NCBI GenBank assembly: GCA_013265495.1
Contig: MU058198.1
Span: 2,430,419-2,494,418 of the forward strand
DNA from: Vicugna vicugna
Lineage: Eukaryota
Reading direction: 5' to 3'
DNA: 64,000 nt
Positions 1-59,463 of this stretch are shown in pieces. The position numbers and the translations under genes are program-made. Every line of letters starts with the position of its first letter. Positions within the stretch are counted from its first letter, which is position 1. Below the pieces are notes generated by a model. It ran no database searches. It saw nothing but the letters and a program-made list of their open reading frames with translations, and was not told the DNA's origin.

Positions 1-204
1 CCGGCCAGGTCCGGAATTCTTCATTCATTTATTCCGCCACCATTCAGTGTTAATTGGGAGCCAGCTACGTGCCGCAGATACGGCCCTGACCATTTGGTCA
101 GAGGAGGTGTCAGTAAGCACATAAGCTAAACCAGTAAATAAACAAGGGCCTTCCATTATGATCGCTTTAGAATCGTTGGGCTTGCGGGCAGAAAGAGATC
201 TTAG

Positions 205-300
205 CAGTCGCTACAGTTTCTTCATCTGTGAAATGGGGATAATAGAATTTCCTATCTCATAGGATCGTGGTGAGGGCTAAATAGGGTTAGACGGGAGAAG
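205..300 (+). mobile_element. MIR core fragment
   Basis: cagtttcttcatctgtgaaatggggataatag...ataggatcgtggtgagggctaaat is the MIR core motif. Confidence 0.75.
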
Positions 301-394
301 CCCCAGTTTGCAGCGTTTGATTGGTGACTGGGTCTCCTACCCTCTTATACTGGAAGAAAACATGTTGCTAAGGAGTAACAAACCTTCCTATGGG

Positions 395-599
395 TTGCAC
401 TTAGACTTTATTTAATCCTCACCACAGTTCTTTGGAGGTCGGTACTTTTATTATCCCCACTTTAAGGATGAAAATAGTGCACTGTATCAAGATCAAGCAA
501 CTCCAGGTGGGCGCTGCGTAGGAAGTAGCAGACCTGGGATTTGAACCTATGTAGTTCTGCTCCGTAGTGCGAGCTCTTACCCACTATACTATACTGCCT
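395..599 (-). mobile_element. MIR SINE with intact Pol III type-2 promoter, antisense in POLR3E intron 1
   Basis: - strand reads GGCAGTATAGTATAGTGGGTAAGAGC...GGTTCAAATCCCAG...AAAGTGGGGATAATAAAAGTACC...GTGAGGATTAAAT; A box 591-581, B box 547-537. Confidence 0.88.
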
Positions 600-654
600 T
601 TTATTAAGGGAGCTTGCAGCATATTCGTTAAGAATGAGAATAAGGATCTTTGAC

Positions 655-815
655 ACCAACTAGACAAGACTTCTGTCCTAGCTCTGCCATTCTCCAGCAC
701 TGTGACCTTGGGCAAGTTACTCTCTCAAGTTGTTTCCTCACTTCTTAATTGGGGATGATAACTGTTGATTTTTAGGGCTATTGAGCAGATTAAATGAGAA
801 TGCATGTTAAGTCCC
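655..815 (+). mobile_element. MIR fragment
   Basis: ctgtgaccttgggcaagttac...tttcctcacttcttaattggggatgataa...gattaaatgagaatgcatgt. Confidence 0.75.
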
Positions 816-2739
816 TACAGAAGGGAGGATCTGACTCTTGAGAGTTAATCCTTCTTGCCCCTAGGCCATCTCTGCCTTTAACTTAGATGAACACTGAGGT
901 GATCCAGAGAGGTAAAATGCCTTGTCTAGGGGGCACACAGCCAGTAAGAGTACAGACTTTGAGACTGTTTGCCGTGGGGCACTCTCCCCTTACGCCCATT
1001 ATATTTTGTCCTCACCCTCTCTAACTCCCTCCTGTATCTGAAGATTATTTGGAGTTGCCTCTGCTTTCTGACTGGCTGACAGGTTAGGTTCTTGGATGTA
1101 GCAAAGATGCACCTAGCTGTGGCCTTCAGAAACCACCTTAGATTCTCCTGGTTTCCTTGTCCCCTACCCATTTGTTGAACAGCCACCCTTTGGAGGATGT
1201 TTTCTGTGCCCAATGCCATGGAGCCACTGCCACAGAGTACTCTTGTGGTCACAGGACATCCTATAGAGGCCAAAGTAGTCATTGCTGCTGGGGAAGTTTG
1301 GCTAGTGGTGGCTGGGAGGCCTGTACCTGCCTGTAGGCCGCACCCCTCTCCGTTGTCAGGTGTCCAAGAGGCCCAAACTATGAGGCCGGCAGGCTCAGTG
1401 GGTTAAAGTCTGTAACCGCCTGATTTCATGCACTTGTTCGCTCATCTATCCTTTGTATTGAGTGTTTACTTCACGCCAGGCACTGATCTAGCTATTGAGA
1501 AAATAGCATGGATTTTTTTAAAAGGTAATAATCCCCATATCAACTTTACGAAGTAAATATAATCATCTCCATTTTATGGTTGAAGCACTGAGAGGCCCTC
1601 ATGAGGCTTCCATTCCAGTGCAGAAGACAGACAACACATAAGCAGATAGACTAGGTCGGTCCTGATTGTGATAAGAACCACGAAGGAAATAAAACGGCAT
1701 GTGGTAGTGACTGGAAACAGGTTTGGGGCGACCTGTCTACTCCTGGAGGGGGTGAGGGTGTTGATATCCAATGAACAGGAGCCAGCCTTGAAAAGCCCTG
1801 AGGACAACAGATGGTGTGCAGAGGTCCTGAGACAGGCTGGGGCTCAGCTTGTTGGAGGCCCAACAAGATCATACAGGACCTTGGGGCCATGCAGAGGAAT
1901 TTGAGTTTTATTCTATGTGGCAGTGGAAGGATTTTGAGCAAGGAAATGATGTGACTTACTTTTCTGCAAGGACAATTCTGGCTATTTCTGGGAGGACTGG
2001 AGGTAGGAAAGACTTGTTGGAGCAGGACTTTTCAAATTACAGGTCAAAAAATAAATTATTAAAAAAAACAAATTACAGATCAGGATTTATTCGTGGGATG
2101 TGAAATCAACTTAGGGGGATTGTAACCAGTATTTTCAATTTTAATGAGTGAGAGTGAAAAACATCACAGATAGTAGTGGCAGTTGCTGGTTACGTGAAAC
2201 CTGGTTTTAGTTAGGTCATTGTCTGTATATTCTGGGTCATTTATATGGAATTGATTTCTTACTGTGGGTCTTAGGCTGAAAAATGTGAAAGCCACTGAGT
2301 TGGGTGATGTTGGCTGGGACGGTGAGGGTTCCTGAAGCCCTCCCTGACTGAGGAGAGGCCAACAGGGAATGGCCGAGAAAGCCTATCTGTCAGGGATGAT
2401 TGTGTCTTGGGATCCTCCCAGGCCACACCCTCTTAGTACTTCTGGTCTGTTCCCTGGCTCACCTGGAAGTCCCCAGTCTCCCACTTGTCCACAGAGCCAG
2501 CTGCAGAGAAGGCAGGTTCCTAACATACAATTCTGGCCCTGGGCAGCTGGTGCAGATGGGGTGGGGTCCCTCTGGGCAGTAGCCGGCACCTAAAAACTGC
2601 CGACTTGGGGCTTGTGATTTTCATCCAGTCTTCTCACCCCTGACTGTCGGAGGTAGCCTGCTTCCCTCCGCTCTCTTCCTCTGCTCGGAGTGCTTTGGTA
2701 GCTCCCTAAAAACGGCACTCGTATATTCAGACTACATAC

Positions 2740-3480
2740 ACGTACTGAGTGCCTGCTGTGTGCTAGGCACTGGGGGGTACAGCAAGGGACAAAATAGACG
2801 AAAGTGTCTGCCCTCATGTAGCTTACCGCTTAGTGGGGGTGGGGACAAATACTAAACACAGAGCTATGTAAACTGCCACGTGGTAGTAGTGCTGTGGAGA
2901 AAACCAGAGCGGGGAGGAGCTGGCAGGGAGGAGCTGGCAGGGAGGGATGCTGCAGTTCTGAACTGGGGGCACGGGGAGGGTCTTAGCCATCAAGTAACAC
3001 CTGAGCAGAGGCCTGAAAGAGGTGAAGGAGGGAGCCATGAGGTGATGGGGGTAGAGCAGCTTCAAAGGCCCAGAGGAGAGGCGGGAGGGTGGCCTGTGGG
3101 AGAGGCAGTCTGAGAGGAAAGGGGCAGGAGAGGGTTGTTGAGGGCCTCACGTGGGATGGAAAAGACTTGAGCTTTCGTTCTGAGTGCGATGGGAGGACTT
3201 TGGAGTGACATGACCTGACGTGGCTTTCAAAAGAACGGCTGGCTGTGGGGTGAGCAGAGACCTTAAGGGGCACAGGTGGGAGCAGGGAGACCAGTTAGGA
3301 AGCCGCTGCTGGAAGGTGGGCGGAGATGGAGCTGGCTGGACTGGGGCGCTGGCGCTGGGGGCAGCCGGATTCCTGACATACTTTGAAGGCAGAACTGACA
3401 GGATTTGCGGCTTGGCGTGAGAGGAAGAGAGGTATGGAAGATGACGCCCATGCTTTGGCCTGAGCCATCTCAGAGTCTGG
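2740..3480 (-). mobile_element. L2 LINE remnant
   Basis: tactgagtgcctgctgtgtgctaggcactgggg...ctgccctcatgtagctta, followed by the purine-rich gacttgagctttcgttctgagtgcgatggg pattern typical of antisense L2 3' regions. Confidence 0.65.
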
Positions 3481-3746
3481 AAAGTGTGTCTGGAACAAGA
3501 GCGATGACTGCACCTTGTGGCTGGGGCGGTGTGGGGGGAGCTCACAGGATATTGAGTCCCCTGGCGGAAGTATTACGCTCGTTTAAGTATTAAACCATTC
3601 AGATGGTGAGTACATAAGACAAAAATCCAGCTGGTCTTACCCAAAAGGAGAGGTCTGGGAAGAACTGCTGAGATCTGAGGTGCCCAGGTGCCCTTCCAGC
3701 TGTGACCATCCCCTCCCTGACGTGGAGGGTCGGCCCAGCTGAGCTG

Positions 3747-4053
3747 CAGTCAGCCCTCCGTCTCCATGGGTCCAGCCAACCTCGGAAAGTTCCAAAAAGC
3801 AAAACTCGACTTTGCTCTGTGCCTGGCAACTATTTACATAGCATTTACGTTGTATTTCTACATGTAACTATCTACATAACACTTACATTATATTAGGTAT
3901 TGTAGATATTCTAGAGATGATTTAAAGTATGGGATGTGTGGGCAAGTACGCAAGTACTGTGCCATTTTATACAAGAGACTTGAGCATCCATAGAATTTAG
4001 TATCCCCGAGGATCTTGGAACCAGTCTCGCCCGCCCCTTCCCCACAGGGACAG
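3747..4053 (-). mobile_element. MER2-like (TcMar-Tigger) non-autonomous DNA transposon
   Basis: tatttacatagcatttac...tattaggtatt...ctagagatgatttaaagtat...gacttgagcatcc...tggaaccag matches the reverse of the MER2 consensus as I recall it. Confidence 0.7.
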
Positions 4054-4960
4054 TGTGCTCACCCTCTGTCACGGAGACCTGCAGCGTTCCCTCCTCCAGG
4101 CACTTGAAGTGCTTCCTGTTGTTCCTGGAATCCCTCCTCCCCTCTGCAGTCCTGGTTGTCCAAATCTTTCTGTCCTTCAGGGCCCAGCCCGAACGCCCCT
4201 CTTCTCTCCTCTCAGCTTCCCTACCTCTAGCTGTGACCTGAAGTTGGATGGCCTGGCGTTGACGTCCAGTGGGTCCTCTTGCTGTGGGGATTTGAGTAAG
4301 ACACAACAAAAGTGTCTCCGAATCCCAGTCTCCTTGTTATAAAACAGGGGCAATTAAGAGGAAAGTATGTGAAGAGGGTCATTTTTAGACATGAACACAC
4401 ACACAAAACCACAGAAAGGAGGTCATCTCACTCAGGGTTGGGGTTAAAGTCAGCTTCAAAATCAAACATAAGAGGTGGAGTCACCTGGGAACCCAAGCCT
4501 TGGGACTGTCTGCTCATCCTGCTGCGCCTCAGACTCTTGAAAGCTTCCCTGTTACTTCTCCAGTGTATTCATCATGGTTGTGGACTAGCCAGCCTCCATC
4601 CTCCTGCCTGGCAGTGAATTCTTCGTGAGTGATCAGAAAACCCCTAAAACCAATCACATATTCTTTCCCGTGGGTGTAGCTGACATGTGATGACTTGGAT
4701 TTACCTGTTTGCACCCATTGCGTAGTTGCTTCTGCCCCTTTTTGGGGGGGCCAGTGGGGTATACAGTGGGCTGCCCACTTTTGACTGTGTGATAGATGTA
4801 GAAATAAGATCAGTTTATGTTTGTCTTAAGCACCTCCCTCCCAGAGCAGGGCTGGTTGCAGAACAGGTGCCCAGGTTACATGGCTGACTGACTGACATCC
4901 AGGCCTCTTGCTCTCCTTGCAGATTGAGTCCGAGGACTGCGCGGCTGGCTCCGCCCTAGT

Positions 4961-4996
4961 ATGGCCAATGAAGAAGATGACCCAGTCGTGCAGGAG
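4961..4996 (+). CDS. POLR3E: POLR3E coding exon 1 (gene exon 2; exon starts at 4923)
   Basis: Acceptor ccttgcag/ at 4922, ATG at 4961, [12 protein letters not shown], donor GAG/gtaact. Confidence 0.95.
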
Positions 4997-7900
4997 GTAA
5001 CTGCTGTTCCCATCTTCTGCCAGGGTGGGGTCCCTCCCATCCATCCATCCTCAGGCCAGCCTGGGACCTGTGGGCATCCGCCATGCCTAGAACCTTCTTC
5101 CCCATGTACCTCCCTGGTTGACCCTTCACTTCCTTCAGGTGTCTGATCCAGTATCACCTCATCGGAGGATTCCCTGACCACCCTGCCTCGTGTGACCTTC
5201 TCCTACATACCTTTCCTAGCCCCTTGCTTTGGCCATGCCTTGCACTTGACCATAGCACTTCTCAGCCCCCAAACATAAGTCTCCTTCCACTAGAGTATAA
5301 GCTTCATGAGGGTGGCGATTTTGTTTTGTTCACCACTGTTTTTGCAAAGCCTAGCACTTAATAGATCACTCAGTGACTATTTGTTGAATGAATGAGCATT
5401 CATTCTTTCTGGGCTTACCCAGGTTTAGTCATTTGGCAGTTCTCTGGATCCATTGTGTGCTGGGGGCTGTGAGCAGTGAGCCAGGCAGTATCCCTGCCCT
5501 TAGGAAGCTTAGGATCTGTGGATTGAAACTGACAAAGAACGAGTCTTAGGATGCAGACACTGGGGAGGTATGTTCCAGAGTCAGCCCAGACAGGAACACA
5601 CCCTGGAGCCTCCATGCCTTTGCACATGCTGTTCCCTCCACCTAGAATTCCCTTCACACATGCCTCCCATGTGGCTGATGAGCCTTCTCTCATCCTTGAA
5701 GCCTGGAGGTGGGAGAGGGCATGGTTCAGAGGAAGAGCTAGGAAGCTGGAAGGTAAACTGCAGTGGGGCGGGGGCAGTAAGGGTTGAGAAGAAAGCAAGT
5801 AGGGCCATGAGAAGAAAGCAAGTAGGGCCAGGTCGGTGCACCTTAAGACAGATGACAGGCTGATCCAAGACAGGTGATGGAGGCCCAGGGAGGAAGCCCT
5901 CCCCTGCCCCGTCCTCATCAGATAAGCCTTTAATCAGGCTCTAGGGTGCATCCTGATCTGGGCAGCCCCAGGGAATGCATTTTTTATTGGATTACAGTGA
6001 ACCTGGGCTGGTGACCCTGGACATACCTAGATTGGAGACTCAGTTTCCTCTGTTTTTAGCATCAGCAGATTGATTTCCTCCTCCCCGAAACTGCCTCTAG
6101 GGGCCACTACCCCTTACCTGAAATTTGAGGAGCATGCGCATGCCTGGGGCAGATCAGGCACTGGTTTCTGTCTCCTGGTTAAGTCTTCTTCCCTTGTTCC
6201 AGATCGACGTGTACTTGGCCAAAAGTCTGGCAGAGAAGCTCTATCTGTTTCAGGTAATTATGGGACATAAAGGTAAAGGGGGGAGAAAGCAAGTGTTGGT
6301 GGGTGGTGGAGACTTAGTAAGCGATGGGCGAGGAACAGTGGGAGTTCTTGGCGCAGAGGTTGTGATAAGACAGTCTGTTTGCTTTTACGGGCAGGTCGAT
6401 AGTAGTCTCTCATTTTTAAAGTGGGAAAGCCAAGGCAACTCTGAGAGGCAGACCGCGTAGTGGATGAACTTGGGCTTGCCAGCACCGAGGCCCAGCTCCA
6501 ATGCGACTTAGCTGCAGGCCCTTGCCCGGGGAAGTTCTTTAAAAAAAAGCCTCCCTGTGTCTTAGTTTTTTTGTCTGCAAAATAGTGATAGTAGCAATAC
6601 CCGATGACAGGGTCCCCTTGGGGATTGGATGAATCAATTTTTTGTTCGTTTTATGATGAGTAGATGATTAGGTTTATTTGTTTATTTGTAACAGAGGGGC
6701 TGGGGATTGAACCCAGGACCTCGCACATGCTAAGCATGCTCTCTACCATTTGAGCTATACCTTCTTCCCTGGATAAGTCTATCTTGAAGTGCTTTGAATG
6801 CTGCTTGAGAATGAGGACCACCGCTGTTATTGAGGCTCAAGGAGGGGCTTTCAGGGGCAGCCTCTGGGCAGCATGGGTGACCCTTGATTTCCAGCTGTGA
6901 GTCCCCCCAGTTTTTACGCCCGCCCCCTCCCCTGGGCTGGGCCAGTAGTTCATCATGCTCACGAGTATCACTCACATACTGTATGCAGGCACTTGTTTAA
7001 GCATTTTACGTATGTTAACTCACTTCATCCCACAATACCCCTGTGGTGGTGATTATTATTGTAATTTTATAACAGCTTCATTGAGATCTAATCCACACCA
7101 TGCAAGTTCCCCACTTAAGTGTAAATGCAATGGATTTTAGTCTAGTCACAGGGGGTGTGACCAGCACCAGTCTATTTTAAGAAGTGTTTGCAGCTGCCGC
7201 CTGGACCCCCTTCCCTACCTGCGGTCCTAGGCAACCGTTAACCTATTTTCTGTCTCTGTGGATTTGCCTGTTGTGGACATTTCACAGAAGTGGAGTCGTA
7301 TAATATGTGGCCTTTCTTGCCTGGCTTTTTTATGTAGCATGTTTTCAAGGTTCACCCATGTTATATCGTGGATCAGTCCCTCACTCCTGTTTATGGATGA
7401 GTATACTCCAGTGTGTGGATATATACACACCACATTTTGTTTACCTGTGCATCAGTTGATGGATATTTGGGTTGTTTCCATGGCTGGGCTATTATGGATA
7501 ATGCTGCTGTGAACATTCCTGTCCAAGTGTTTGTGTGGGGATGTTCTCATTTCTCTTGGGCATATACCTGGGAGTGGAATTCCTGGGTCCTATAGAAACA
7601 GTGTTTAATATTTTGAGGAACTATTTTGCACCACTTTACATTCCCAGCAGTCAGGTTATTAAGTGTTTTTGTCCCCATGTTGCATATGAGAAAACGAGGC
7701 ACAGGGAGGCTAGTAACCTGCACAGGGGGCCTGGGACAGGGTGGCAGGAGCCGCCGTGTGTGCTGGGGAGAGGCCTGGCACCCGTCCCCAGGCATCTGTC
7801 TTCACAGGCTTTGGGGCTGGGGCCTGGCTGGCCTCGTGCACCTGCTTCCTTGGCCAACAGCAGAGTGATGGTGGAAAGGGTGGTGGTGACAGTGGACCCA

Positions 7901-10900
7901 TGTGTGTTCATGGGGTGCCGGGCCCCGTGCCGGATGTCAGCTCCATTTGCCTCTTTCCCTGCTCCTAGTGGCCTTGGGAGGCGAGGACACCCATGCTTGG
8001 GGAGGCGAGGAGCTTGCCTGAGTACCCAAGGAGCAAGTGGCAGTTAGGGCTGGAACCCAGACTGGTCTGATTCCAGAACCTGTGTCCCTCCCTACCATTC
8101 TTCCCAGAGACCGGGAAATTGCATAGCTGCCCCGGACCTTGGCAGACCAGGGGCCTCCCGGGCTGTCATGGGCCAGCCTGTCCCAGCCTAGGGCTCAGTC
8201 CAGACCAGCTGTGCCTCAGGCCATTCCTGGACCTAAGCTCCAAGTTCCTGCCCCAAGCTCCAGCCCAGGAAGCAGGAAGGAGTCACTGTGTTGCTATTTA
8301 AGTGAGCTTTTAGGAAACAGCCATTTCCGTGAGATGCAATGTAGCTGATCTCAAGCAGCCCCCACAAAGGAGGGCGTGCTTTACACACTGCCACCCCTCC
8401 ACCAGGCTCATTCTGAAGGCTGTCGTGGTGGCAGCAGTGACAGCCACAGCTTTTTGAAAGTAGCCCCAAACCATGAGTCATCCACGCACCCAGTAGTGTA
8501 TGTGCAGCACGAGAGAAAGAAAGGAAAAGTGTGTCTGTGGGTACTGATGTGGAAGGATGTCCCCAGTGTGTTCAGAGCAGAGAAGCGATTTTCAAGCAGT
8601 ATGTTCAGGTGTGACATAAAATAACCTCACCCCTAATGACGCTGTGTCTCAGAGAGGGCTGTCTGAGCAGGTCAGTTGTAGACCAGCTCCCTTTCTGTCT
8701 TCAAATTGTTATTACAGAAAAGCCCACACACCAGCAACAGGAGAGAGACCTTCCTCTGCCCACCCACTTCTGCCCGGGGGTCCCGTTCATCCAGCGGGGC
8801 TTCGCGAGAACCCCACCCCTGCCCTTACAGTAGAGTGTAGAGCCCCCTCCCTCTTGGCTGGTGTAGAATAGCCAATATTGTATGTAGTGCGGCGTGCTTT
8901 TCTGTGATGGCGAGTGGGTAGGGGGTGGCGGGCTTCGCGCAGCCGTCTGTCCCCAAATCTGCCTGCGGCGGCCCGTGCTGTGTTTCGTGCTGTGTCACGC
9001 GCTGCGGCGACCCCCTCCCGCGTACTGACTCCTATAAGCGCTTCTCTTTGCATAGTCACGTAGCTCCCCACCCCCCTTCCTGTATCTCACGCAAGTTTTA
9101 TACTCTAATATAAATTAGAGAGAGAATGAGATGGTGGTTCTCACAGATCCGTCGCGCGGCGTCAGTAGTGAGTGGCGTTTGGGCCTTGTTTTCCCTCTTG
9201 GCTTCCTGTGGTCTCCTGTCACTGGTCCTTCTCTACCTGCATGGCCTGTAAACTGGCAGTTAGACCTCACCCTCTTACCCTGACTCGCCCAGCGGTGCTC
9301 TGGGGCCACGTGCGCCGGGGCCTGCTTGGGTTCCTGATGCCTAGGCGTATCCCTCTGAAGCCAAAGACATCTGACAGCCGCCCTTTGGAAGGAAGCTAGG
9401 TGGAGCTAGGGAGAAGGGGGTGCAGATGGAAACCAGCAGGGGCCTCTGGGCTCGGGTGTGGGGTCGGGGTGAAAGGTGGCTATTGATTCTTGGCCAGAGG
9501 CCCAGAGCCCAGCTCTGGTCAGGCAGACTGACGACTCCCTTCCCCTCCCCAGTACCCTGTGCGTCCAGCCTCAATGACCTACGATGACATTCCTCACCTC
9601 TCAGCCAAGATCAAGCCCAAGCAGCAGAAGGTGGGGCTGCCTGTTTGATTGGGCGGGTGGGGGGCCAACAGGGTGGGAGCTGGAAGAAGCCAGGAGACAG
9701 GCCTTTGGGGACTGGAAGCCCAGAGGAGTGATTGGAGAGATAGGAAGAAAAAGCAGCCGCTTACAGGGCCTTGAAAGCTGAGGAAGGAAGGAATTCCAGA
9801 AAGAAAGGGAGTGGGCAGCCCTAGAGAGGCCAGGGAGGAGTGAGGCTTCAGATGAATTAGAGAACGAGATGGCGTGGACAGAATAAGGCCTGATGGGGGA
9901 TCTCCTGCTTCTGGGCAGGGTCAGGATTGGCAGGGGCTGGGGTTAGGAGGTGGCCATGGCGGGGTTGGGGGATCCCCTGAGGACTGTGCCTTGGGGTCCT
10001 CATAGCTGGTGGGGTGCGTGGTGCCTCCAGGTGGAGCTTGAGATGGCCATCGACACCCTGAATCCCAACTATTGCCGCAGCAAAGGGGAGCAGATCGCGC
10101 TGAACGTGGATGGCGCCTGCGCCGACGAGACCAGCACATACTCCTCGTGAGTTCCCTGGGCCTCAGGCCTCTGAGCTCCCCTTTCTTCAAGTATGAGCCT
10201 TCCAAAGCCCTTGGAGACATCTAGGCCCTGTGCCCCATTGCTGGTCTCCCCACCAGCATCCCACCTTTGCACAACTGGACCTGGCTCAGACCCGTCCCCG
10301 TGGGAAACTTCTCTCCTGAGATGGCTCCCCTGACCAAGGTCTTCCTGGGCCGAGCAGAAACCTGGGAGTGGGAGCTGCCACCCACTGCTTGTCTCTTGGG
10401 CCACAGACAAGGTTTCCTCATCCCCAGCTTCCCTCCTGCAGCACGTGTAGCCTGTCCTGTGGTCTTGGTCCCTGGCTTTTGGATTTTAGGGTTGGGGTGG
10501 AGGGGGCTGTGCCTGCCAGGCCTGAGCCTGGAGCTTCCTTCCTCGCAACATCCGTTCTCACTGTGCTTCTAGGAAGCTGATGGACAAGCAGACATTCTGC
10601 TCTTCCCAGACCACCAGTAACACGTCCCGTTACGCTGCTGCGCTGTACAGGCAAGGTACCCACGCTGGGCATCCCGGGCTGCTGGGGTCGTGGCTGGGAA
10701 TGGTTCTTGGCCTGGTCTGGTGGTCCTATGGCTCTGGGATTGGGGGCTAGAGCAGAGATAGGAGGTAGTTCGGCCGTGGGCTGAAGCCTTCAGGGGAGTC
10801 CGAGGCCCTTGGTGACTCCCTTGAGTCAAGCTGGGTGGGTCAGCCTCAGCTCCTAGAGTCAGGTCCAAGCCCATCTTCCTCTGCCAGGTGAGCTCCACCT

Positions 10901-13900: not shown

Positions 13901-16900
13901 GTGGAGGCCTCATCGCAGAGGCCTTGAATGCCATGCTCAGGAAGTTGGATGTGATCCTGTGGCCAGCCTTGGAGCAGGACAGTGGGTGGCTGGAGCGGAA
14001 GGTGACTGAGGGGTGAGACCTGTGGATGGCAGAGCTCTGGCCCCGCAGGCCTGGACTGTTGGCTGAGGTCCCTCCCGCTCCCTGTTCCTCCCACAGGACA
14101 GCCGCTCTGAGCACGAGCGCCAGTACCTGCTGTGCCAGGGCTCCAGCGGGGTTGAGAACACGGAGCTCGTCAAGTCGCCCAGGTGGGGTTGGCTGGGCCA
14201 GGGTGTTATGTCCTAAGGGCTGCTGAGCCTGACACTGGCCCCAGGAGGGTCCTTCTGGCGTGGGTCCTTCCTTGGGACTGTGGTCCCTTCTGTAGGGTCG
14301 GATGGGGCCAGGAGAGGGGGGAAGTGGGAAGACATGGTCCTCCTTTCTCTGTGAATTTGGGGAAGGGTGGGGGGATCTTTGTCCCCCTCCCCCCTAGGCT
14401 GGATACAGCCTGGTTCAAGGGCAGGGGTGGGACAAGGACAGCCCTGGGAGCCGCTAACGCTGCCCCCTCTCCCCACAGTGAGTACCTCATGATGCTGATG
14501 CCTCCCAGCCAGGAGGAGGAGGAGTGAGTAGAGGCGGGCTGGATGCTCCCCCCTCCCCACCCCGAACCCCCCACCCCGGTCTCCTCTAACCCTTCCCCTT
14601 TGTTTTCAACAGAGACAAACCAGTGGCCCCCAGCAATGTCCTGTCCATGGCCCAGCTGCGCACCCTGCCCCTGGCTGACCAGATCAAGATCCTGATGAAG
14701 AATGGTGGGTGGGCACCCCTGTCCTCCAGGGCACCCCAGCTCTGCCACCTCCTGGGGAAATAGAGTCAGGGACAGACTTCAGGACCAAGGGGCCAGAGGC
14801 CCCCAATACCCCGAGCCCACCCAGCTGTACAGCTGTCCTTGAGTGGGTGGTGGGCCGCTCCAGGTCCTTGCCACTCCCCTGCTGAGTGAGCTTGGACAGG
14901 TAACTGACCTGCTGAGCCTTAGACTATTTTTCTGTAGAAGGGGTCTAAGATAGCTCCTAGGGCTGAGGCCAGGCTTCTGAAGGGCTTACACAGAGCCTTG
15001 CATGTGAACAAATGTGCGCTACGTTCATTTTCATAATGAAGCGTGTTTACTTGCACTGTTTGTGGTACCCTCACCCGGCTTCACACAGTTGGGACTCTGA
15101 AGGCCAGAACCTTTGGGGTGGATGTGAGCCTTGAACCTCAGAGCTGAGTCCCAGGCTCTGGGCTCTTCTGAGATGCCAGCAGGAGGGTCTCCTGGGGCCC
15201 GAGCAGAGAGGGGTGCTCCCAGGGGGCCAGGCTGCTTGCCTTCCTACAGAAAACGTGGGGCCTTCCCCAGGCCCTGCCCCTGCTCACTTGGCTGGGGATG
15301 CAGTGGGTGGGGGTGAGCAGGACACAGTGGCTGAGTGCATGAACTATGGAACCAGACAGCTTGGGTTCATATCCTGACCCTGCCACTCACATCCTGACCC
15401 TGACCCTAGCCACTTCAGCCATGGGTGTGTTTTGAAACCTTCCTGGGCTGAGCAGTGAGAGTCTTCCTCACAAGACACTCCTCAGTCTTCATGGGTGTCT
15501 GCTCCAGGGCTGGTGAGATGCAGGTGCCCACAGGTAATAAACTGCCAGTGAATGTCAGCTGTTCCTGGTGCCAGTGTCATCCTTAGTGTTCACGGGCTGG
15601 GCTTGTTCTGTGAGCTTGAAGCTCTAGAGACGTGCTGGGGAGAGGGACGGTCCAGGCCCTTCCCTCTTGTCTGATGTCTCCTGCGTCCTCCTCAGTGAAG
15701 GTCATGCCTTTTGCCAACTTGATGAGCCTCCTGGGCCCCTCCATCGATTCCATGGCTGTTCTGCGTGGCATCCAGAAGGTGGCGATGTTAGTCCAAGGAA
15801 ACTGGGTGGTGAAGAGGTAAGTTCATCCTTAACAGGAGCTCTTAATCCGTTTAAATTTCATGCCGTTACTGATGTTTCGGGTTTAAATCTACCATGACAC
15901 TTTCTGTTTGTCCTGCCTACATTGCATTTTATATTCATTCTTCTACTGAATTCTTTCCTTATTCAATTTCCCCTCCACTAATGTGGAAGGTACCCTTGAT
16001 TCTTGGTGATTACCCTACGTACATTTGTAACTTAAAGTTTAATATTAATTGCTGCTTTCTACTCTCATCCATGATAATTCAGTGACCTTAGAATATATAT
16101 ATTTTAAATTTTATTCATTTATTTATTGTATTATTTTATTTTGGCAGGGTGGGTAATTAATTTTTTTTTTTTTAAGAGGAGGTGCTGGGGATTGAACCCA
16201 GGACCTTGTACATGCTAAGCATGTGCTCTACCACTTGAGCTATACCCTCCCCTAGAATATTTTATATTTATCTTCCTCCCAAGTCATGTGTCGTTGTATT
16301 TGTATATTTTAATTCTGTTTTAAATCCCACGAGACATTATATTATCCACTCACATCTTTGCCTTTTATTTTGCTCATCGTTTGTTTCTGCATCTCTGACT
16401 TCCTGTCTGGGATAATTTCCTGCTGCTAAGGAATGCTGTGGGAGTTCTTTTAGTGCAGGTCTGCGGGTGATGAACTTCTTTGGTTTTTCTTCACTTAGAA
16501 ATGGCTATTTCACCCGTATTCTTGAAGGATATTTTTACAGACTTTAGAAAATCTAGGTTGATTGTTTTCCTTCCACACACAGGTATAGTTTCATAGGAAC
16601 TTGACTTCCATTGTCTCTCTTGTCGGTCTAGTCCATGACCCACCGTCTGATACCTATTCCTTTATTTTTTCTCTGGCCACTTTTAAGATTTTCTCTTGTT
16701 TTGGCTTTCCAAGCTCATTAACATGTGCCTAAGTGTGAATTTCTTTTTATTTATCCTGTTGGGGATTCATAGGCCTTGGGTTTGTGGCTTGCTGTCTTTT
16801 GGCAGTTTGTCTTCTGTGATTCCTTCTCTAGACTATCTGCCTTCTCCACTAGAGTGTCATTTTCAAGGGGGCAGGGACTGAATGTTTTGACTCTCTCTCT

Positions 16901-19900
16901 ATCCGTGGTACTTAGTATAATGGCTGGCACATGGTAGTCCCTTGGTAAGTACAGTGTGGCTACATTTTATGGCCCTTGAATTATACTCATTTTAAATGGT
17001 AGAATATAAAGTACATTAATATTCACTTTTTAGAAAGTACGATGTAAAATAAAGTCTTTCAAATATGAGTTATTTTAAATTTTCAAAAAAGTAATTCATT
17101 GCAGAAAAGTATCATTCCACAGTTGGTTGGCCAAGTAAACTGCTGAGTATGTTCATGTTACTGCCACATGGTGATGCCTGGGCTTCCACTCGGAGCCTGA
17201 GGGAGGGGAGGCAGAGGAACTGAGCCCGGGGACTGACGTGCCACCCCCATGTCGTTGGCAGCGACATCCTGTACCCCAAGGACTCCTCCAGCCCTCACAG
17301 CGGCGTGCCTGCCGAGGTGCTCTGCAGAGGCCGGGACTTTGTTGTAAGTGCCCGGGCTCTCTGGCCTCCTGGGGGGTCGTCGTGGGAGGGGGATAGGGGG
17401 CAGCACAGGGCATCCAGGACCTTGGCCCAGCCATGGAACAGAGGGCAGGTAAGTGTGATCTGGGGTGAGGGTGGGTGGGGCAGGCGGCACAGAGGTCGGG
17501 GCGGACGGCTCTGCCTTTCTCCTTCCTCTCGGATCCTGGAGTCTCCGCCTTCATCGAAAGCTTTGAGTTGAGTTCCTCTAGCCTGGAGGTTGCAAACTGA
17601 AGGCCCATAGCCATTTGAGCTGAGTGATTTTATTTTATTTTATTTTGTTTTATTTTACTTTATTTTATTTTTAATTGAAATATAGTTGATTTACAATGTT
17701 GTGTTAGTTTCTGATGTACAGCAAAATGATTCAGTTATACATATATATATTCTTTTTCATTATAGGTTATTATAATCTATCAAATAGAGTTCCCTCTGCT
17801 ACACAGGAGGACCTTGTTGTTTATCTATTTTATATACAGTAGTTTATATCTGCTAACTCCAAACTCCTAACTTATCCCTTCCTCCCTCTTCCCCTTTGGT
17901 AACCATAGCTTGTTTTCTGTGTTAATGGGTCAGTTTCTATTTTGTAAATAAGTTCATTAGTGTCATTTTTTTTAGATTCCACACATAGGTGATATCATAT
18001 GATATTTTTCTTTTTCTGTCTGGTTTGCTTCACTAAGTATGATAATCTCTAGGTCTGTCCATGTTGTTGCAAACGGCGTTATTTTATTCTTTATGGCTGA
18101 ATAATAATTCGTGTGTGTGTGTGTTCGTGTGTGTGTGTACACACCACATCTTTATCCAGTCATCTGTTGATGGACATTGAGGTTGCTTCCATGTCTTGGT
18201 TATTGTAAATAGTGCTGCTGTGAGCATTGAGGGGCATGCATCTTTTTGAATTAGAATTTTCTCTGGATATATGCCCATGAGTGGGATTGCTGGATCATAG
18301 GGCAACTCTGTTTTTAATTTTTTAAGGAATCTCCATACTGTTTTCCATAGTGCCTATACCAAATTAAGTTCCCACCAACAGTGTAGGAGTGTTCCTATAG
18401 GCTGTTTGTCTTCATTGGAGAAATGTCTGTTTATGTCTTCTGCCCATTTTTTGAATGGGTTGTTTGTGTTTTTGTTATTGAGTTGTATGAGCTGTTTGTA
18501 TATTCTGGAACTTTAAGTCCTTGTCATTGCTTCTTTGCAAGTATTTTCTCCTAGTATGTAAGTTGTCTTTCATTTTGTTTATGATTTTCTTTGCTGTGCA
18601 AAAGTTTAATTAGGTCCCATTTATTTATTTTTGCTTTTATTTCTGTTGCCTGGGTAGACTGACTTAGGGAAAGATTGCTACGATTTATGTGAGAATGTTT
18701 TGCCTGTGTTCTCGAGTGGTGCTTTTAAAGTGCTGACTTGGTTGTCTGTTTTTACAAATCACAATCATGATAGTCCTGTCTTGTCGTGAATAACTGGACA
18801 GCCTGGCATTCCTGGACCCACACCCCCAAACAGCACCGACTTTGATCGGGCCGATGATCCCCAGCTCACCACAGTCCCGGGCGCGTCTGTTTCCCTCGGG
18901 CGTGTTCCCTGCACTTGTTGCTGTGGGCTTCTGCAGCTCCTGAGCTGGCTTGTGCCTTCACCCCATGACCCCACCCTGCCTCCCACCTTCATCTCGAACT
19001 GAAGTCCCAGCCAAGGCATCCCTCCGAAGGGCTTGAAGCCTGAGCTGCTGGGACCTGCAGTGCCTCCCTTGACCTCGGCAGTGTGCTTTGTTTGCTGAGA
19101 TCTGTCTCCTTGGAGCTGTCTGCGGTGACCTTGGTTAGCTCATGTCCAGGACCGATCACACTGGGCGGCCCTTAAGCTGTTTAATAAAAGAGTGTCTGCA
19201 TGTTCTCTCTTCTCAGCTGGGTGTCCCAGCTCTTTTGGGCACTCAGCATCTACTTGCCTTTGTGGTATTTCTGTCTCTGGAGGGTCAGGGAGCAGTAGAA
19301 TTGACTCCCAGCCTTGCTAACCACACACATGTGCTGTTCACCCTTAGCTGCCTGTCAGCCCTGCTCTGTTCGTGTAGACACTGTCACATCTAGGGGTCTG
19401 GGAGAGGGTCTAGTCAAATCTGCATTGTTGTAGGTGACAGAGGGGGCAAGACATCCCACACCCCAGGGAGCTTTTGTGGTGTGGATGAGGTGGGGTGGGT
19501 CCAGCTACCCTCCTGGAGGTTGTTTACAGAGGAGGAAGCGGAGGCTCAGAGTTGAAGTGACTGCCCACAGCCACACAGCCAGGACCCAGACCCAGGCTGG
19601 GAGCCGCTACTCTGGAGCCTCATCTTGGGCTCCCAGGACAGTCTGAGGTGCGTTCGTTTCTGCGTCCTGGAAACAGGCTTCTTTTTCTCCCTCAGATGTG
19701 GAAGTTCACGCAGAGCCGGTGGGTGGTAAGGAAAGAGGTGGCCACGGTGACTAAAGTAAGTGATGTTCTTGATCTGAGGCCTGGGCCCCACCACTGGAGG
19801 GATGTGGGCTGAGCGGGGTGTTTGACCTGGTCATGTCTCACCTTTGCCCCCCTCACCCCAGCTCTGTGCTGAAGACGTGAAGGACTTTCTGGAGCACATG

Positions 19901-22900
19901 GCCGTAGTGAGGATCAACAAAGGCTGGGAGTTCATACTGCCTTATGACGGGGAGTTCATCAAGAAGCATCCAGATGTGGTCCAGCGGCAGCACATGCTGT
20001 GGACGGGCATCCAGGCCAAGTACGAGCTTGCTGGGCGGGGTGAGGGGCAGCCAGGCAGAGGGACACTGGGTTGTGCCCCCAGCCTCCCTGCCTCCAGGGG
20101 CAGTGAATGCAAATTTAGGGCTCTGTGCACCCCTCTTCCACTCAGGTGGATGCTTGCTGATCCCAGAACCCCTGGCAGAGCTACTTCCTGCTGATCAGAG
20201 CTGACGCGTGTTCTGAGGGGGTTGGGGAGGAGAGGAAACCCTCAGGCGCAAGAGCCCGGGCTCGGGTGGGCCAAGGCAGGCTGGCCAGGGACCAGCTGAG
20301 GGAGGGAGGGATAGGCTGCCACTCCCCACCCTGGCCCCAGGGAGGCTGTGGGGAGAGACAGTTGGAGCTCTAAGCATGTGGCGTCTGCAGTGACCAGGAT
20401 GTCCGGGGCTTAAGGGGGTATTTCTGTTGGGAAGCAGATGACGGGAAACAAGGTTTAAAGTTAAGAGGGTTTACTCTTCTTTTCAGGTTAGAAAAAGTTT
20501 ATAATCTTGTGAAGGAAGCCATGCCAAAGAAGCCAGATGGACAATCAGGTGCAGAGGGGTGTCGGCTGGGTGGGCCCCTAACCCCGGCACTGCCTCCAGC
20601 AGGGGTCGGCCTGGAGCGGGGCTGAGGGGGTAGCGGGTGTGTGACTCACCATTGGCCGCCCTTCTGTACCCGCCTCCCCTGCCCCGCAGGCCACCACCTC
20701 AGGGACTGAAGCCGCTGTGCTCCGGGGCTGGGGCTGGGCTCTAGGCCCCTGAGACTTCTCACCCTTTTGGGTTTCCAGAGGTGGTGGGACAGGAGGAGCT
20801 GCTGGCAGTAACCCACCTGGCTTGGGCCTCTAATTTCCCCAGTTCTATTCTTCCTTATTTTTGGCCTAGCTAAATTCCTCCTGGGTGGGGTGGCGTGACA
20901 GGTGGGCTGGGCCACTTGCTTCTGCTTCCCTCCTGTCCCTCCCTCTGGTCAGCAGGGTGTCCCCTGTTGGGATGGAAGGGCAGAAGGGCCATGGGTCTTC
21001 CCGGCACGTTCTGAACCCTCCTGAGCAGCCCTGCCTCTCCCCACAGGGCCTGCTGGGCTGGTCTCCGGGGACCAGCGGGTCCAAGTCGCCAAAAGACAGG
21101 CCCAGCAGAACCACGTGCTGCTGGAGCGGGAGCTGCAGCGGAGGAAGGAGCAGCTGCGGGCGTCCACGGTCCTGCCCGGGGTGCGGATCAAGGAGGAGCC
21201 CATGAGCGAGGAGGGGGAGGAGGAGGAGGAGCGGGCGGCAGAGGAGGACGAGGAGCCCATGGACACCTCGCCCAGCGCGGGCCTCCACAGCAGGCTGGCC
21301 AACGGGCTGCCGGGCGGGCGGCCGGCCGGCGGGGACAGCTTCAACGGGCACCCGCCCCCGGGCTGTGCCGGCACCCCCGTGGCCCGGGAACTGAGGGCCT
21401 TCGTGGAGGCCACCTTCCAGAGACAGTTTGTGCTCACGCTGAGCGAACTCAAGCGCCTCTTCAACCTGCACTTGGCCAGCCTGCCCCCGGGCCACACGCT
21501 GTTCAGCGGCATCTCGGACCGCATGCTGCAGGACACGGTGCTGGCCGCCGGCTGCAAGCAGATACTGGTGCCTGTAAGTAGCGCCTGCGGGACCGGCGGC
21601 AGACGAGGCCCCCCGGCTCCTCAAAGGGCTTCTAGGCAGGCCCTGGAGAGAAGTCTGGTCACCCGAGTGGCCTGAGCCCTGCCGGCTTTGGGGTAACAGC
21701 TGTTTGGGGGGGAATGGCTTGGGGACTTGGGAGACTGTCAGCTTCGGTTTGAATCTTGGCTCCCATGTGGTTGTGTGTGTGAGCTTGGGCCAGACAACCC
21801 CTCGGCTCTGCGCCCTCCTCTGACGTGGGTGAGTGTGCGTTGCTGTGTTCCGGGGCTTTGGTCAGGGCTCAGTGAGAGTCTGAAGGCCGGCGCCCGTTGC
21901 TCAGTACACAGCAGGGCCTCGGTCAAGCCGGCTCGGCGTCCTGGGTTCTAGTCCCCTCCCCTGCCGGCACCTCACTCACTCCTGTCAGCTTTGCCATTTT
22001 TCGGGATGATTTCACTTCTAGTGTCATTTGATCTTCCTTGCAATCGCAGGTGGAGAAACTGAATTCCAAAGAAGTGAAGTGAACTTGTGTAAATGTCACG
22101 TACCCAGGAAGTGGCAGAGCTGGAGTCTGAACCCCAGTATAGTGGCTCCAAGTCTTAAATCCTTTCTGCTTCAAGTCAGATGAGCAACCCTCTCACCAGG
22201 GCTCCTCCTGTGCCCGGGTCCCAGCAGGCCTCCCTGTCTGTAGAGGCTAGCTGGCCAGTGTGGGCTCTGGCCTTTCGGTTAGCGTTTCTGGTGCCAGGCC
22301 TGTGGGTGCAGGGCACGCGACCCCACCCCAGGCTTCTTGTCTCCTTGTCCTGCCATTGGAAGGGGCCTCACAGGGGAGGAAACGTAAGAGCAGAGGGACT
22401 ACTGGAGACCGTCTCCCTGAGCTGTGAGTGAAGGGAGCCTGGCTGTGGCCCTGGGGGGGCTGTGCCAGTCACTCTCTGCCCAGGCTCTGTCCAGACCTGC
22501 AGCAGGCAGAGTGAGGCGGGTCTGTGTCTGCCTCTTAACAAGGGAGCGCTGACATTTGCAGTCCAAGGTCAGAAGCACCTGCAGCCTTGGGTGACCTGAG
22601 GCAAAGGCCCATCCCTGAGTACGTGAGGAGCAGAAACTAGGTAGGACAAGAGGCCCCGGGTCTCAGGCTGGCTGGGCTGCCCTGAGGGATCTGGCCCTCA
22701 TGACAGGGAGCCTCCTTGCTGAGGTCTCTGCAGAAGGTACTAGAGTACTGGAGGCCTTGCCCTATTTGGAGCCACAGTGTCCACCCAGCAAATGGGTCCA
22801 TTTATCTGCAGACCTGCCTTTCGCTGACTGAGCCGGGCAAGGGAGGGGTGTCTGCCTCATGTGAGCGAGGCCGTCTTGGGCAGCGGGAGTGGACGGAAGG

Positions 22901-25900: not shown

Positions 25901-27309
25901 CTTCACGCAGTGTAGATTGTGGCTTCCCCTGCCTGCGAAATCAGTTATCACTCCTGTTTTTTGTCATCCAAAATTATGTCTAAACTGTTCATCCTGTGCT
26001 GATGCTTCACTGGCACTTTTGTTCTTGGCACATACCTTTATTTCTGGTCTTCATTTTATTGGGGTCTCAAAAGATGACAAATTAGCCAAATGAGTTTGTG
26101 TTTAACCAGAAGTCCTGGGTAGGGACTTTGATCACAGACTGCAGTGTGGAGTTTGGTGCATAGTTTGGGATTTCATATTTGGGGCTGTTTCTCTTTTAGG
26201 CGATTGTTTCCCATAATAACATGTTTTTGCTACTAAAGCATCGACAGGTTTTGCTTGAAATTTTTTCCAAAAATTACCGTGTACGCCGGAACATGATCCA
26301 GTCTCGGCTGACTCAAGAGTGTGGAGAGGACCTGAGTAAACAGGAGGTGGATAAAGTGCTAAAGGTACATCCGTTTGGCGTATAATCACATCAGAGTCTG
26401 GGCTTCTGCACTGACCGTGAGTTTAAGAACAAGGGAGATCACAACCGGCTCTTCCCTGTCTTAGTTGGAGGCTGACAGTGTGTGGAAAGGGATCAGTCAG
26501 GGTTTTTCCTGTTACTGTGTTTGTTAAATCAGACTCCTCTGGACCCTTCCCCAGCCAGTTGGATCTTCAGCAGCAGATAATAGTTGGCACTTGTGTGGTG
26601 GGTATGTGCTAAACTGAATAAAATGTAGGCTCTATCCTGAAAAAATACAGTCTGGTTGGGGTCATCATCCTTGAAAGCGACAAGGCCTATGGTATAGCCC
26701 TTGCCTTACTCCTCCTCTGAATCTTGGTACCACTTTTGTGGTTTTTGCCATAGCCACATCTAATTAAATTTAGCTTTAAAAAGGAATATATCATTTGTCT
26801 AGTATGTGAAAATACTTAATTCCTACTGGGCATTACTTACAATGCTTTTACGAAATGCCTGTGGTGCAGATACCATGTTTGCAGAAACATGGAATGCTGA
26901 AAGCTGCTGACAGATTCCCAGTATTCTAGAATTCTTACGGCCTCTGTTAAGGATCCAGGGCCATAGATACTGACGTTATTTGTGAAGCACCTCTGTTCTG
27001 GCCATCTTATTCGGTTTTTCTATTCTGTGTTTATAGAGCACGTTCACTTATAGTTCCTCAGTCTTAAGACTCTTGGAGGAGAGGAAGGGGCCCAAGGCCC
27101 ATACGTGGCTGACCACATCATGTGCAGGCAGAGCTTGATCTACTTTTTGTGTTCTCGCCATTAATTATAAATCAAGTTCTGAGATGCTGCATAAAATGTA
27201 GCAGCTTGCTCTCCTGCTGAAGTCCGCCCTTAACGTGTGTCTCTGTTCCCAGGACTGCTGTGTCAGCTATGGTGGCATGTGGTACCTTAAAGGGACGGTA
27301 CAGTCTTGA
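4961..27309 (+). CDS. POLR3E: RNA polymerase III subunit E (RPC5), spliced CDS of 20 coding exons, 2136 nt, 711 aa plus stop
   Basis: Exons joined at GT-AG sites in a continuous frame: [41 protein letters not shown]...[19 protein letters not shown] recognise this as mammalian RPC5; its position next to CDR2 matches human synteny. Confidence 0.97.
5785..5830 (+). repeat. Perfect 23-bp tandem duplication
   Basis: tgagaagaaagcaagtagggcca at 5785-5807 and again at 5808-5830. Confidence 0.95.
6203..6253 (+). CDS. POLR3E: POLR3E exon 3
   Basis: ttccag/ [17 protein letters not shown] /gtaatt. Confidence 0.95.
6661..6770 (-). mobile_element. tRNA-Ala-derived SINE (Vic-1-like, camelid)
   Basis: - strand GGTATAGCTCAAATGGTAGAGAGCATGCTTAGCATGTGCGAGGTCCTGGGTTCAATCCCCAG followed by an A-rich tail. 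Confidence 0.85.
7060..7665 (-). mobile_element. Old L1 (L1M) 3' fragment
   Basis: ctattttctgtctctgtggatttgcctgttgtggacatttc...gataatgctgctgtgaacatt...gggagtggaattcctggg...ttacattcccagcag. Confidence 0.8.
9553..9630 (+). CDS. POLR3E: POLR3E exon 4
   Basis: ccccag/ [26 protein letters not shown] /gtgggg. Confidence 0.95.
10031..10146 (+). CDS. POLR3E: POLR3E exon 5
   Basis: ctccag/ [38 protein letters not shown] /gtgagt. Confidence 0.95.
10573..10655 (+). CDS. POLR3E: POLR3E exon 6
   Basis: ttctag/ [27 protein letters not shown] /gtaccc. Confidence 0.93.
10888..10995 (+). CDS. POLR3E: POLR3E exon 7
   Basis: tgccag/ [36 protein letters not shown] /gtgagc; 108 nt. Confidence 0.93.
11319..11368 (+). 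CDS. POLR3E: POLR3E exon 8
   Basis: ttttgcag/ [17 protein letters not shown] /gtgagt. Confidence 0.93.
12897..13016 (+). CDS. POLR3E: POLR3E exon 9
   Basis: tcccag/ [40 protein letters not shown] /gtgagc. Confidence 0.95.
13575..13810 (+). mobile_element. MIR
   Basis: ctgtgtggccttaggc...ctctaagcctcagtttccttatctgtaaggtgg...cctggcacgtagaaggggctcagtgaatgttagc. Confidence 0.75.
14097..14182 (+). CDS. POLR3E: POLR3E exon 10
   Basis: ccacag/ [28 protein letters not shown] /gtgggg. Confidence 0.93.
14479..14523 (+). CDS. POLR3E: POLR3E exon 11
   Basis: ccacag/ [14 protein letters not shown] /gtgagt. Confidence 0.92.
14613..14704 (+). CDS. POLR3E: POLR3E exon 12
   Basis: caacag/ [30 protein letters not shown] /gtgggt. 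Confidence 0.93.
15696..15816 (+). CDS. POLR3E: POLR3E exon 13
   Basis: cctcag/ [40 protein letters not shown] /gtaagt. Confidence 0.95.
16097..16252 (-). mobile_element. tRNA-Ala-derived SINE (Vic-1-like) with target-site duplication
   Basis: Same family as 6661-6770; flanking tagaatat at 16089-16096 and 16253-16260. Confidence 0.88.
16270..16800 (-). mobile_element. Ancient L1ME-like fragment
   Basis: T-rich antisense L1 pattern (ttcttttagtgcaggtctgcgggtgatgaac...ttcttgaaggatattttt...tttatttatcctgttggggattc). Confidence 0.6.
17262..17343 (+). CDS. POLR3E: POLR3E exon 14
   Basis: tggcag/ [27 protein letters not shown] /gtaagt. Confidence 0.94.
17628..18713 (-). mobile_element. 5'-truncated artiodactyl-type L1 (ORF2 end, 3'UTR and A-rich tail)
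   Basis: (TTTTA)n tail; ORF 18084..18305 (-) [13 protein letters not shown]...[18 protein letters not shown] is the L1 ORF2 C-terminus. Confidence 0.92.
19696..19755 (+). CDS. POLR3E: POLR3E exon 15
   Basis: cctcag/ [20 protein letters not shown] /gtaagt. Confidence 0.94.
19862..20019 (+). CDS. POLR3E: POLR3E exon 16
   Basis: ccccag/ [52 protein letters not shown] /gtacga. Confidence 0.94.
20487..20548 (+). CDS. POLR3E: POLR3E exon 17
   Basis: tttcag/ [20 protein letters not shown] /gtgcag. Confidence 0.92.
21047..21573 (+). CDS. POLR3E: POLR3E exon 18 (large, CpG-rich; acidic linker and C-terminal domain)
   Basis: ccacag/ [16 protein letters not shown]...[15 protein letters not shown]...[11 protein letters not shown] /gtaagt; overlaps ORF 21115..21675. 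Confidence 0.95.
23890..23967 (+). CDS. POLR3E: POLR3E exon 19
   Basis: ggttag/ [26 protein letters not shown] /gtgagg; a competing in-frame acceptor ends at 23901. Confidence 0.88.
24150..24330. mobile_element. MER5A-like hAT-Charlie MITE
   Basis: gtggttcccaaa...gcatcagaatcacc...cagagactcagttcag...gattctgatgcccagccag. Confidence 0.6.
26239..26364 (+). CDS. POLR3E: POLR3E exon 20
   Basis: ctaaag/ [42 protein letters not shown] /gtacat. Confidence 0.92.
27253..27309 (+). CDS. POLR3E: POLR3E last coding exon (21)
   Basis: tcccag/ [18 protein letters not shown] then TGA at 27307-27309. Confidence 0.95.
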   Translation, partial: DCCVSYGGMWYLKGTVQS

Positions 27310-28408: not shown

Positions 28409-29299
28409 CCTTGGAGGACTATGAACAAAACAAGAGCCAGGCCGCTGTGGTGAGGCTTTTGTTGTGGGCTGCTTTGGGCAATAGAGCCACTGCCGTCTGA
28501 GGGTTTAGATGATGGTCTGTGTGTCCTTATGTGCCCCCAAATCCCTCCCCCCATCAAATATCAAAACTAATATTTGGTAATGTAGTTTAACAGGTAGATT
28601 GCATATTATGTTCTTGCTTCTAATTGTTAACATACATGAGTCTTAAAAGTAAAAAAGTTTCCAGAGTTTATCGAGTGTGTCCAGCTACCATGTAACTACA
28701 TTACCAAGGAGAGACCCCCTTGTACGGCAGAGACTGAGCCGACCAGAACTGGGCGTGGGGTGGGGCGGGGCGTGTGCTCAGCTGGGAGCTGTAGCCTTAG
28801 ACACACTGACAGAGATGAGTTAAACACTGAATTCAAGTAGCTAGGGAAATAACAACATAGGAGGAAATAATTACAAAAATTAAGGAGGTAAAAATTCATG
28901 TAAAGTAAGATATACCAGCAGTTACTGATAAAGGAAAATGGCACAAGCCTGAATAGATAGTGAGATGGGGAGAGAGACAGGAATTAGATGATTTATAAGG
29001 AAAATACAAATTATTTAAAGTGGTTGGAAAGAAATTGCAACGGATCAATTATTAGAGAAGAAAAGGCCCAGAGATGATGACAGTTGAATTATATCAAATC
29101 TTTGTGACATAAACACAAGGGTAAACTCCAGCGTGTAATAAGCCCCCAGATTCTTAACAAAGCATTGATTTAAGAACCTGACAAAGATAGCATGATGTGA
29201 ATAAAAATCCTAAGTAGTGGATTCCAAAGGCATGTTAAAGAAATGATCATAATATATTTATGCAAGGTTGATGACACTAGGAATAACTATTGTAACAAA

Positions 29300-30480: not shown

Positions 30481-30489
30481 AAATGCTGG

Positions 30490-34839: not shown

Positions 34840-56212
<21,373 letters not shown>

Positions 56213-59352: not shown

Positions 59353-59463
59353 CATTTTTTAAATATTAAAAAAAATTTTTTTGACGGAGGTACTGAGGAT
59401 TGAACCCATGACCTTGTGCATACTAAGCATACACTCTCCCACTGAGTATACCCCTTTCCCCCC
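59353..59463 (-). mobile_element. tRNA-Ala-derived SINE (Vic-1-like) with TSD
   Basis: tctttattctgtt (59340-59352) and tctttagtctgtt (59464-59476) flank gaggattgaacccatgaccttgtgcatactaagc. Confidence 0.85.

Follow-up and report, generated by a model that had tools for sequence, protein, structure and literature searches.

Sequence evidence that a camelid POLR3E gene carries, in intron 1, the orthologue of the antisense Pol III-transcribed MIR of mouse and human

Introduction

Most MIRs show no Pol III occupancy (PMC5358760), and an antisense MIR within a gene that encodes one of Pol III's own subunits, with both internal promoter boxes apparently intact, raises the question of whether it is the camelid counterpart of a known regulatory element and whether it would restrain its host gene. 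Such an element has been published for mouse and human Polr3e/POLR3E (Yeganeh 2017, PMC5358760; MIR_dup2285 of Carnevali, PMC5381342). We analysed a 64,000 nt stretch of DNA (the window) containing POLR3E, for which a sequence-only reading had proposed an orthologous MIR acting as a feedback loop. The anatomy of the element, its gene, position, orthology and lineage are taken here from this DNA, while occupancy, transcription and interference are taken from mouse and human.

Results

POLR3E and the position of the element

The identity of the host gene, the intron 1 position and the antisense orientation given in the sequence-only reading are all supported, by Pfam, by identity to RPC5 and by the splice donor and acceptor (Table 1). 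Pfam RPC5 or RPC5_C matched all five of the exon frames tested, the long exon of POLR3E matched RPC5 at E 1e-93, one exon encoded 53 residues which were all identical to human RPC5 (PDB) and a mouse Polr3e primer matched exactly at 21419-21438. Exon 1 lies outside the window: its donor GT is found approximately 500 nt before window position 1 in upstream DNA of the same contig (8500-8501 of an upstream piece whose position 9001 is window position 1), and the intron 1 status and the junction of exons 1 and 2 are read from DNA alone. The MIR unit is antisense to POLR3E and lies approximately 970 nt beyond this inferred donor. Upstream there is a CpG island (GC 0.74, CpG observed/expected 0.74), placing the promoter approximately 1.1-1.3 kb from the unit, and the same upstream piece contains a tRNA-Leu(AAG) gene at 8097-8178. 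This layout, including the tRNA-Leu upstream of the promoter, is shared with mouse Polr3e as drawn in Fig. 1A of PMC5358760.

Table 1 Features of the POLR3E intron 1 MIR and its surroundings (window positions; comparisons with mouse were made by eye)
Feature	Position	Strand	Remarks
Predicted Pol III unit, orthologue of the published Polr3e intron 1 MIR	471-603	-	Approximately 128-132 nt to the first terminator (predicted)
A box TAGTATAGTGG	581-591	-	0 mismatches to TRGYNNARNGG; 9/11 identical to mouse
B box GGTTCAAATCC	537-547	-	0 mismatches to GGTTCRANNCC; 11/11 identical to mouse
First terminator, T4, within the MIR body	471-474	-	Terminal 7 letters identical to the end of the mouse element
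Non-canonical terminator, T3GT2	377-382	-	Predicted RNA 222/226 nt
Second T4 terminator	357-360	-	Predicted RNA 242/246 nt
Rest of MIR body (core region)	387-470	-	Transcribed only on read-through (predicted)
5' flank of the unit	604-650	-	32/47 identical to mouse (Fig. S4C)
Decayed MIR-like copy adjoining the unit, divergently oriented, boxes lost	656-811	+	nhmmer, box scoring, alignment
POLR3E intron 1	1-4922	+	Begins approximately 500 nt before window position 1; acceptor AG 4921-4922
POLR3E exon 2	4923-4996	+	Start codon at 4961
POLR3E (RPC5) coding span	4961-27309	+	20 coding exons read from sequence; stop 27307-27309
Young tRNA-derived simple SINE, POLR3E intron 3	6692-6765	-	ARAGORN tRNA-Leu; first T4 at +184
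Sense MIR-like head, POLR3E intron 12	15305-15400	+	Only 3 box mismatches, the fewest apart from the target; boxes likewise 33 nt apart
Young tRNA-derived simple SINE, POLR3E intron 13	16176-16249	-	ARAGORN tRNA-Ala; first T4 at +997
tRNA-Leu(AAG) gene	Approximately 900 nt upstream of window position 1, next to the POLR3E CpG island on its upstream side	+	ARAGORN; Rfam 57.3 bits

A predicted Pol III unit with intact boxes

The minus-strand A and B boxes proposed for this MIR were found to be exact when scored against the type 2 patterns listed in Table 1, with 33 nt lying between the two 11-mers. Both of the positions at which the A box differs from mouse are degenerate in the consensus. The spacing is equal to that of mouse, as the two sequences align without gaps over a 67 nt block, and the spacing of 25-26 bp given in PMC5358760 must therefore use other box limits. 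Taking the published mouse element as the homologous reference, the unit begins at 603, which would place the Pol III start somewhere in 602-598; the sequence-only reading had put it near 598.

Both of the T4 runs suggested as terminators (474-471 and 360-357) were confirmed, and no other run of four or more Ts was found in a scan of the minus strand over 700 nt downstream, but the T3GT2 at 382-377 had been missed. From starts at 598/602 the two T4 runs predict RNAs of 128/132 nt and 242/246 nt, in agreement with the lengths of approximately 125 and 240 nt predicted beforehand and with those of the human element. MIR-like sequence extends to approximately position 387, so that the first T4 is internal to the repeat, and the remaining body at 387-470 resembles a sense copy at 210-287 (nhmmer, E 4.4e-6). 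A genome-wide search recovered no second close match to the unit at the sensitivity of that search.

Neither a tRNA cloverleaf nor another RNA family was found within 357-603 using ARAGORN and Rfam, including RF00005. We also considered a structured RNA at this locus and rejected it: the z scores of the predicted RNAs against shuffled sequences were -0.04 and +1.19, with 97/200 and 180/200 shuffles folding at least as well.

Orthology to the mouse and human element

We compared the unit to the mouse element (Fig. S4 of the mouse study). Positions 537-603 aligned without gaps and 53 of the 67 letters were identical by eye; by part, identity to mouse by eye was 12/12 at 592-603, 21/33 in the spacer between the boxes and 7/7 for the terminal letters. 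Conservation continued into the flank, where 19 of the 21 letters at 615-635 were identical (by eye). Between the B box and the terminator, however, only around half of the letters were identical to mouse where the body could be aligned, with 13/24 in the best stretch (by eye). The check suggested beforehand, of the boxes against the MIR body, thus found the boxes to be the better conserved (B box 11/11, A box 9/11, body around half; mouse, by eye). The marmoset row of the published alignment was identical to 52 of the 67 letters of the head at 537-603, and the eutherian rows of Fig. S1 have words of the body in common with the window copy, both by eye. A mouse MIR ChIP primer had its sole match at 576-596, with 3 mismatches; a match was also obtained in 1 of 100 shuffles.

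For the human element, Table 3 of PMC5381342 gives predicted RNAs of 124/131 nt (T4), 223/230 nt (T3GT2), 243/250 nt (T4) and 354/361 nt (T3CT). The first three terminators are of the same kinds and at similar distances, at 128, 222 and 242 nt in the window vs 124, 223 and 243 nt in human; for the second and third of these the match is one of lengths only, and their ten letters could survive without selection. No T3CT was found at the distance of the fourth human terminator, the next T3CT here being at 409/413 nt.

Orthology to the mouse and human element, as put forward in the sequence-only reading, is therefore supported by the gapless match to mouse, the primer match and the terminator spacing, and on these sequence comparisons the element is the orthologue of the published POLR3E/Polr3e intron 1 MIR. 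It has the same gene, intron, orientation, neighbouring tRNA-Leu, boxes and flank as the mouse Polr3e MIR and human MIR_dup2285 (PMC5358760; PMC5381342), and a unit length of 133 nt vs 132 nt in mouse. It differs only in substitutions of neutral appearance, located in its spacer and body, and in lacking a T3CT at the human distance. The comparison suggests drift in the body of the RNA but retention of the promoter, flank and terminators. The conserved flank at 615-635 (about -13 to -33) likely corresponds to the TFIIIB footprint, and deletion of upstream sequence was reported to lower transcription of the human element in vitro approximately 2-fold (PMC5381342). When only the B box of the human element was altered, about 40% of its transcription in vitro was reported to remain (PMC5381342).

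Intact boxes among shuffles and other MIR-like copies

A strict pattern combining both boxes occurred once in the window and in none of 200 dinucleotide shuffles, whereas a loose pattern occurred three times, in the MIR unit and in two SINEs of young age; of 200 shuffles, 1 had the loose pattern. It should be noted that shuffling provides only a weak null where SINEs are concerned; since SINEs inherit their boxes, other MIR-like copies are the fairer control. Using nhmmer with five seeds derived from the window, a search which was not exhaustive, we found at least 12 MIR-like loci including the target. The claim that the other MIRs lack one or both boxes was borne out, with both boxes intact in none of the 11 other copies, the best of which had 3 mismatches and the rest 5-6, though several of these 11 are 3' fragments which could not carry boxes. 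Ordinary decayed copies appear to resemble the unit in having a tRNA-derived head and core but differ from it in box preservation. The probable membership of the unit in the MIR family comes from its orthology to human MIR_dup2285 and its similarity to the other old copies in the window, which we take to be MIRs. In Fig. S4C the mouse element, too, is followed by sequence similar to the decayed copy which adjoins the unit at 656-811 (by eye).

Lineage and previously published conservation

Two primers for the hinges of alpaca IgG2 and IgG3 heavy-chain antibodies (PMC10825579) each had one exact match in the 2.03 Gb genome and reversed controls had none; the primers were run on this genome alone. 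An Ig C1-set exon comes after one of the two sites, and the second site is a short exon bounded by AG and GT. These predicted heavy-chain hinge exons place the genome in Camelidae. Their peptides look to be of a South American type.

The conservation of the MIR in this lineage had been offered as the new part of the sequence-only reading. This does not hold, as Vicugna pacos is named in the 23-species MIR alignment of 2017 (Fig. 1C and Fig. S1 of PMC5358760), which also takes in cow, sheep, buffalo and three cetaceans; camelid conservation of this MIR has been known since then at the family level. Our comparison with Fig. S1 covers the letters of six rows and part of a seventh, which do not include the alpaca and human rows. 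No camelid functional data on the POLR3E MIR were found in the literature; a main-text search for alpaca work on the element also gave nothing, but it is a weak one, as it misses the 2017 paper, in whose main text the species appears as "Vicugna pacos".

The platypus row of Fig. S1 is without the AAAGGCAGTAT start and the terminal T4 of the five complete eutherian rows (by eye), and one bat row starts slightly differently from the other eutherian rows. The platypus copy resembles a generic MIR-type copy and may be an independent insertion, in which case the element would be eutherian or therian and not pan-mammalian.

Young SINEs and neighbouring genes

The two young tRNA-derived SINEs within POLR3E are both antisense to the gene, with a perfect B box and an A box with 1 mismatch. 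They belong to a high-copy family, with 1967 first-look candidates and 94-100% identity among the 40 scored, which is presumably the camelid family vic-1. Two further decayed copies lie near 44430-44505 and 59385-59455. SINEBase mentions vic-1 as a simple camel SINE. The assignment to Camelidae above is independent of this name.

A coiled-coil gene lies tail to tail with POLR3E (34843-35772 and approximately 56050-56130, both on the minus strand, with a CpG island at 56-57 kb). It had only sub-threshold Pfam hits, and it looks like CDR2. A 273-codon open frame at 61642-62460 on the plus strand had a weak MFS_2 match below the Pfam cutoff (E 2.8e-4) and is possibly, we assume, an MFSD13B-like gene beside CDR2. 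Fragments which we presume to be L1-like were seen at approximately 29200-32500 (plus strand), between the 3' ends of POLR3E and the CDR2-like gene, and at 17670-18720 (minus strand) in POLR3E intron 14. In papers on human 16p12, POLR3E and CDR2 occur together.

Discussion

We propose that a SINE remnant has been kept as a live type 2 Pol III gene in intron 1 of camelid POLR3E. Pol III would start at 602-598, head toward the POLR3E promoter and end mostly at the T4 at 474-471, or else read through to 382-377 and 360-357. Pol II that has set out from the CpG-island promoter would meet it head-on and slow just ahead of the MIR 3' end, and this interference would lower POLR3E output modestly (approximately 1.5-fold in mouse ES cells), with the act of transcription, and not the RNA, being what matters. 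By analogy with mouse and human, we consider it quite probable that the camelid orthologue acts on POLR3E through such interference in cis.

The published evidence for this comes chiefly from mouse, where deletion of the MIR raised Polr3e pre-mRNA, mRNA and protein (almost 1.5-fold), with mRNA increased in all of the knockout lines tested, and abolished the Pol II peak at the MIR, and where a reporter fell by 20-30% only with a MIR which was antisense and had intact boxes (PMC5358760). These results argue against an alternative which we consider unlikely, that the unit is active, owing to open chromatin and to the CpG island and tRNA gene nearby, but is not regulatory for POLR3E. The boxes would then be kept for another TFIIIC/TFIIIB role, such as a chromatin boundary or a local Pol III hub, interference would be mainly that of Pol II with Pol III, and POLR3E would be affected to a negligible degree. 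Boxes which are kept while the body drifts fit this equally well, and CRISPRi of the human MIR was reported to lower MIR RNA while POLR3E mRNA was unchanged (bioRxiv 10.64898/2026.09.24.754042), although any relief could have been masked if the dCas9-repressor sitting in intron 1 was an obstacle to Pol II in its own right. Loss of Pol II also raises MIR transcription (10.1101/764605; PMC9703767), so that interference between the two polymerases is mutual, and depletion of Pol III strengthened the signal of Pol II over the MIR in ChIP instead of abolishing it, a result at odds with a simple pile-up (PMC9703767).

That the short MIR RNA is a functional product acting in trans seems very improbable. 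All 7 of the cell lines examined contained the human MIR RNA (PMC5381342) and the terminator positions are conserved, but in mouse the RNA appears unstable and its overexpression from other loci left Polr3e unaltered (PMC5358760), and here we found no folding signal and no Rfam match at the locus, with a 3' body around half identical to mouse. It is equally hard to believe that this is a dead or non-orthologous MIR whose boxes have survived by chance in camelids. MIR-like copies are indeed common in the window and inherit boxes by descent, but the gapless match to mouse reaches into flank beyond the repeat, body words are common to the eutherian rows (by eye) and none of the other copies has kept both boxes.

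The sequence-only reading went beyond cis interference, which is published, to a feedback loop, and in this it was overstated. Even for mouse and human, a feedback loop in the strict sense is still a hypothesis. The authors of the mouse study favour head-on collision and offer feedback as a possibility, and in their data 5S, pre-tRNA-Ile and U6 were not raised by deletion of the MIR (PMC5358760), suggesting that POLR3E is not limiting; the same result can be read in favour of a unit without a regulatory role. When human cells carried a POLR3B variant or had La knocked down, however, MIR RNA was decreased and POLR3E mRNA increased, which supports autoregulation (bioRxiv 10.1101/2024.02.05.577363). 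With support in print being mixed, physiologically relevant negative feedback on Pol III through the camelid element is conceivable, though we lean somewhat against it. Intragenic Pol III units at sites of Pol II accumulation are likewise described in VAC14, SHF, CTC1 and HES7 (PMC5358760, Fig. 5), but their orientation varies and none of the host genes encodes a Pol III subunit, so that autoregulation is not implied.

RPC5, the product of POLR3E, is the termination-reinitiation subunit of Pol III. A bolder reading, which we regard as rather improbable, is that the ladder of weak terminators (T4, T3GT2, T4) makes the roadblock a sensor of RPC5-dependent termination and not of total Pol III, and that the two young SINEs may have supplied camelids with additional antisense Pol III units. 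On this reading the conserved part, with its similarly spaced terminators in human and camelid and its flank of 19/21 identity to mouse, would be more than a promoter. If the roadblock were such a sensor, recycling of Pol III on the T4 unit or read-through toward the promoter could set it.

Few Pol III units have been described which tune a Pol II gene by interfering with its elongation; the POLR3E MIR is one of them, and it is a candidate for autoregulation of Pol III. As conservation in camelids has been in print since 2017, the camelid copy adds almost nothing to this known system. What little it adds is a terminator ladder that matches and an upstream flank that is conserved, both of them candidate cis elements of the POLR3E MIR.
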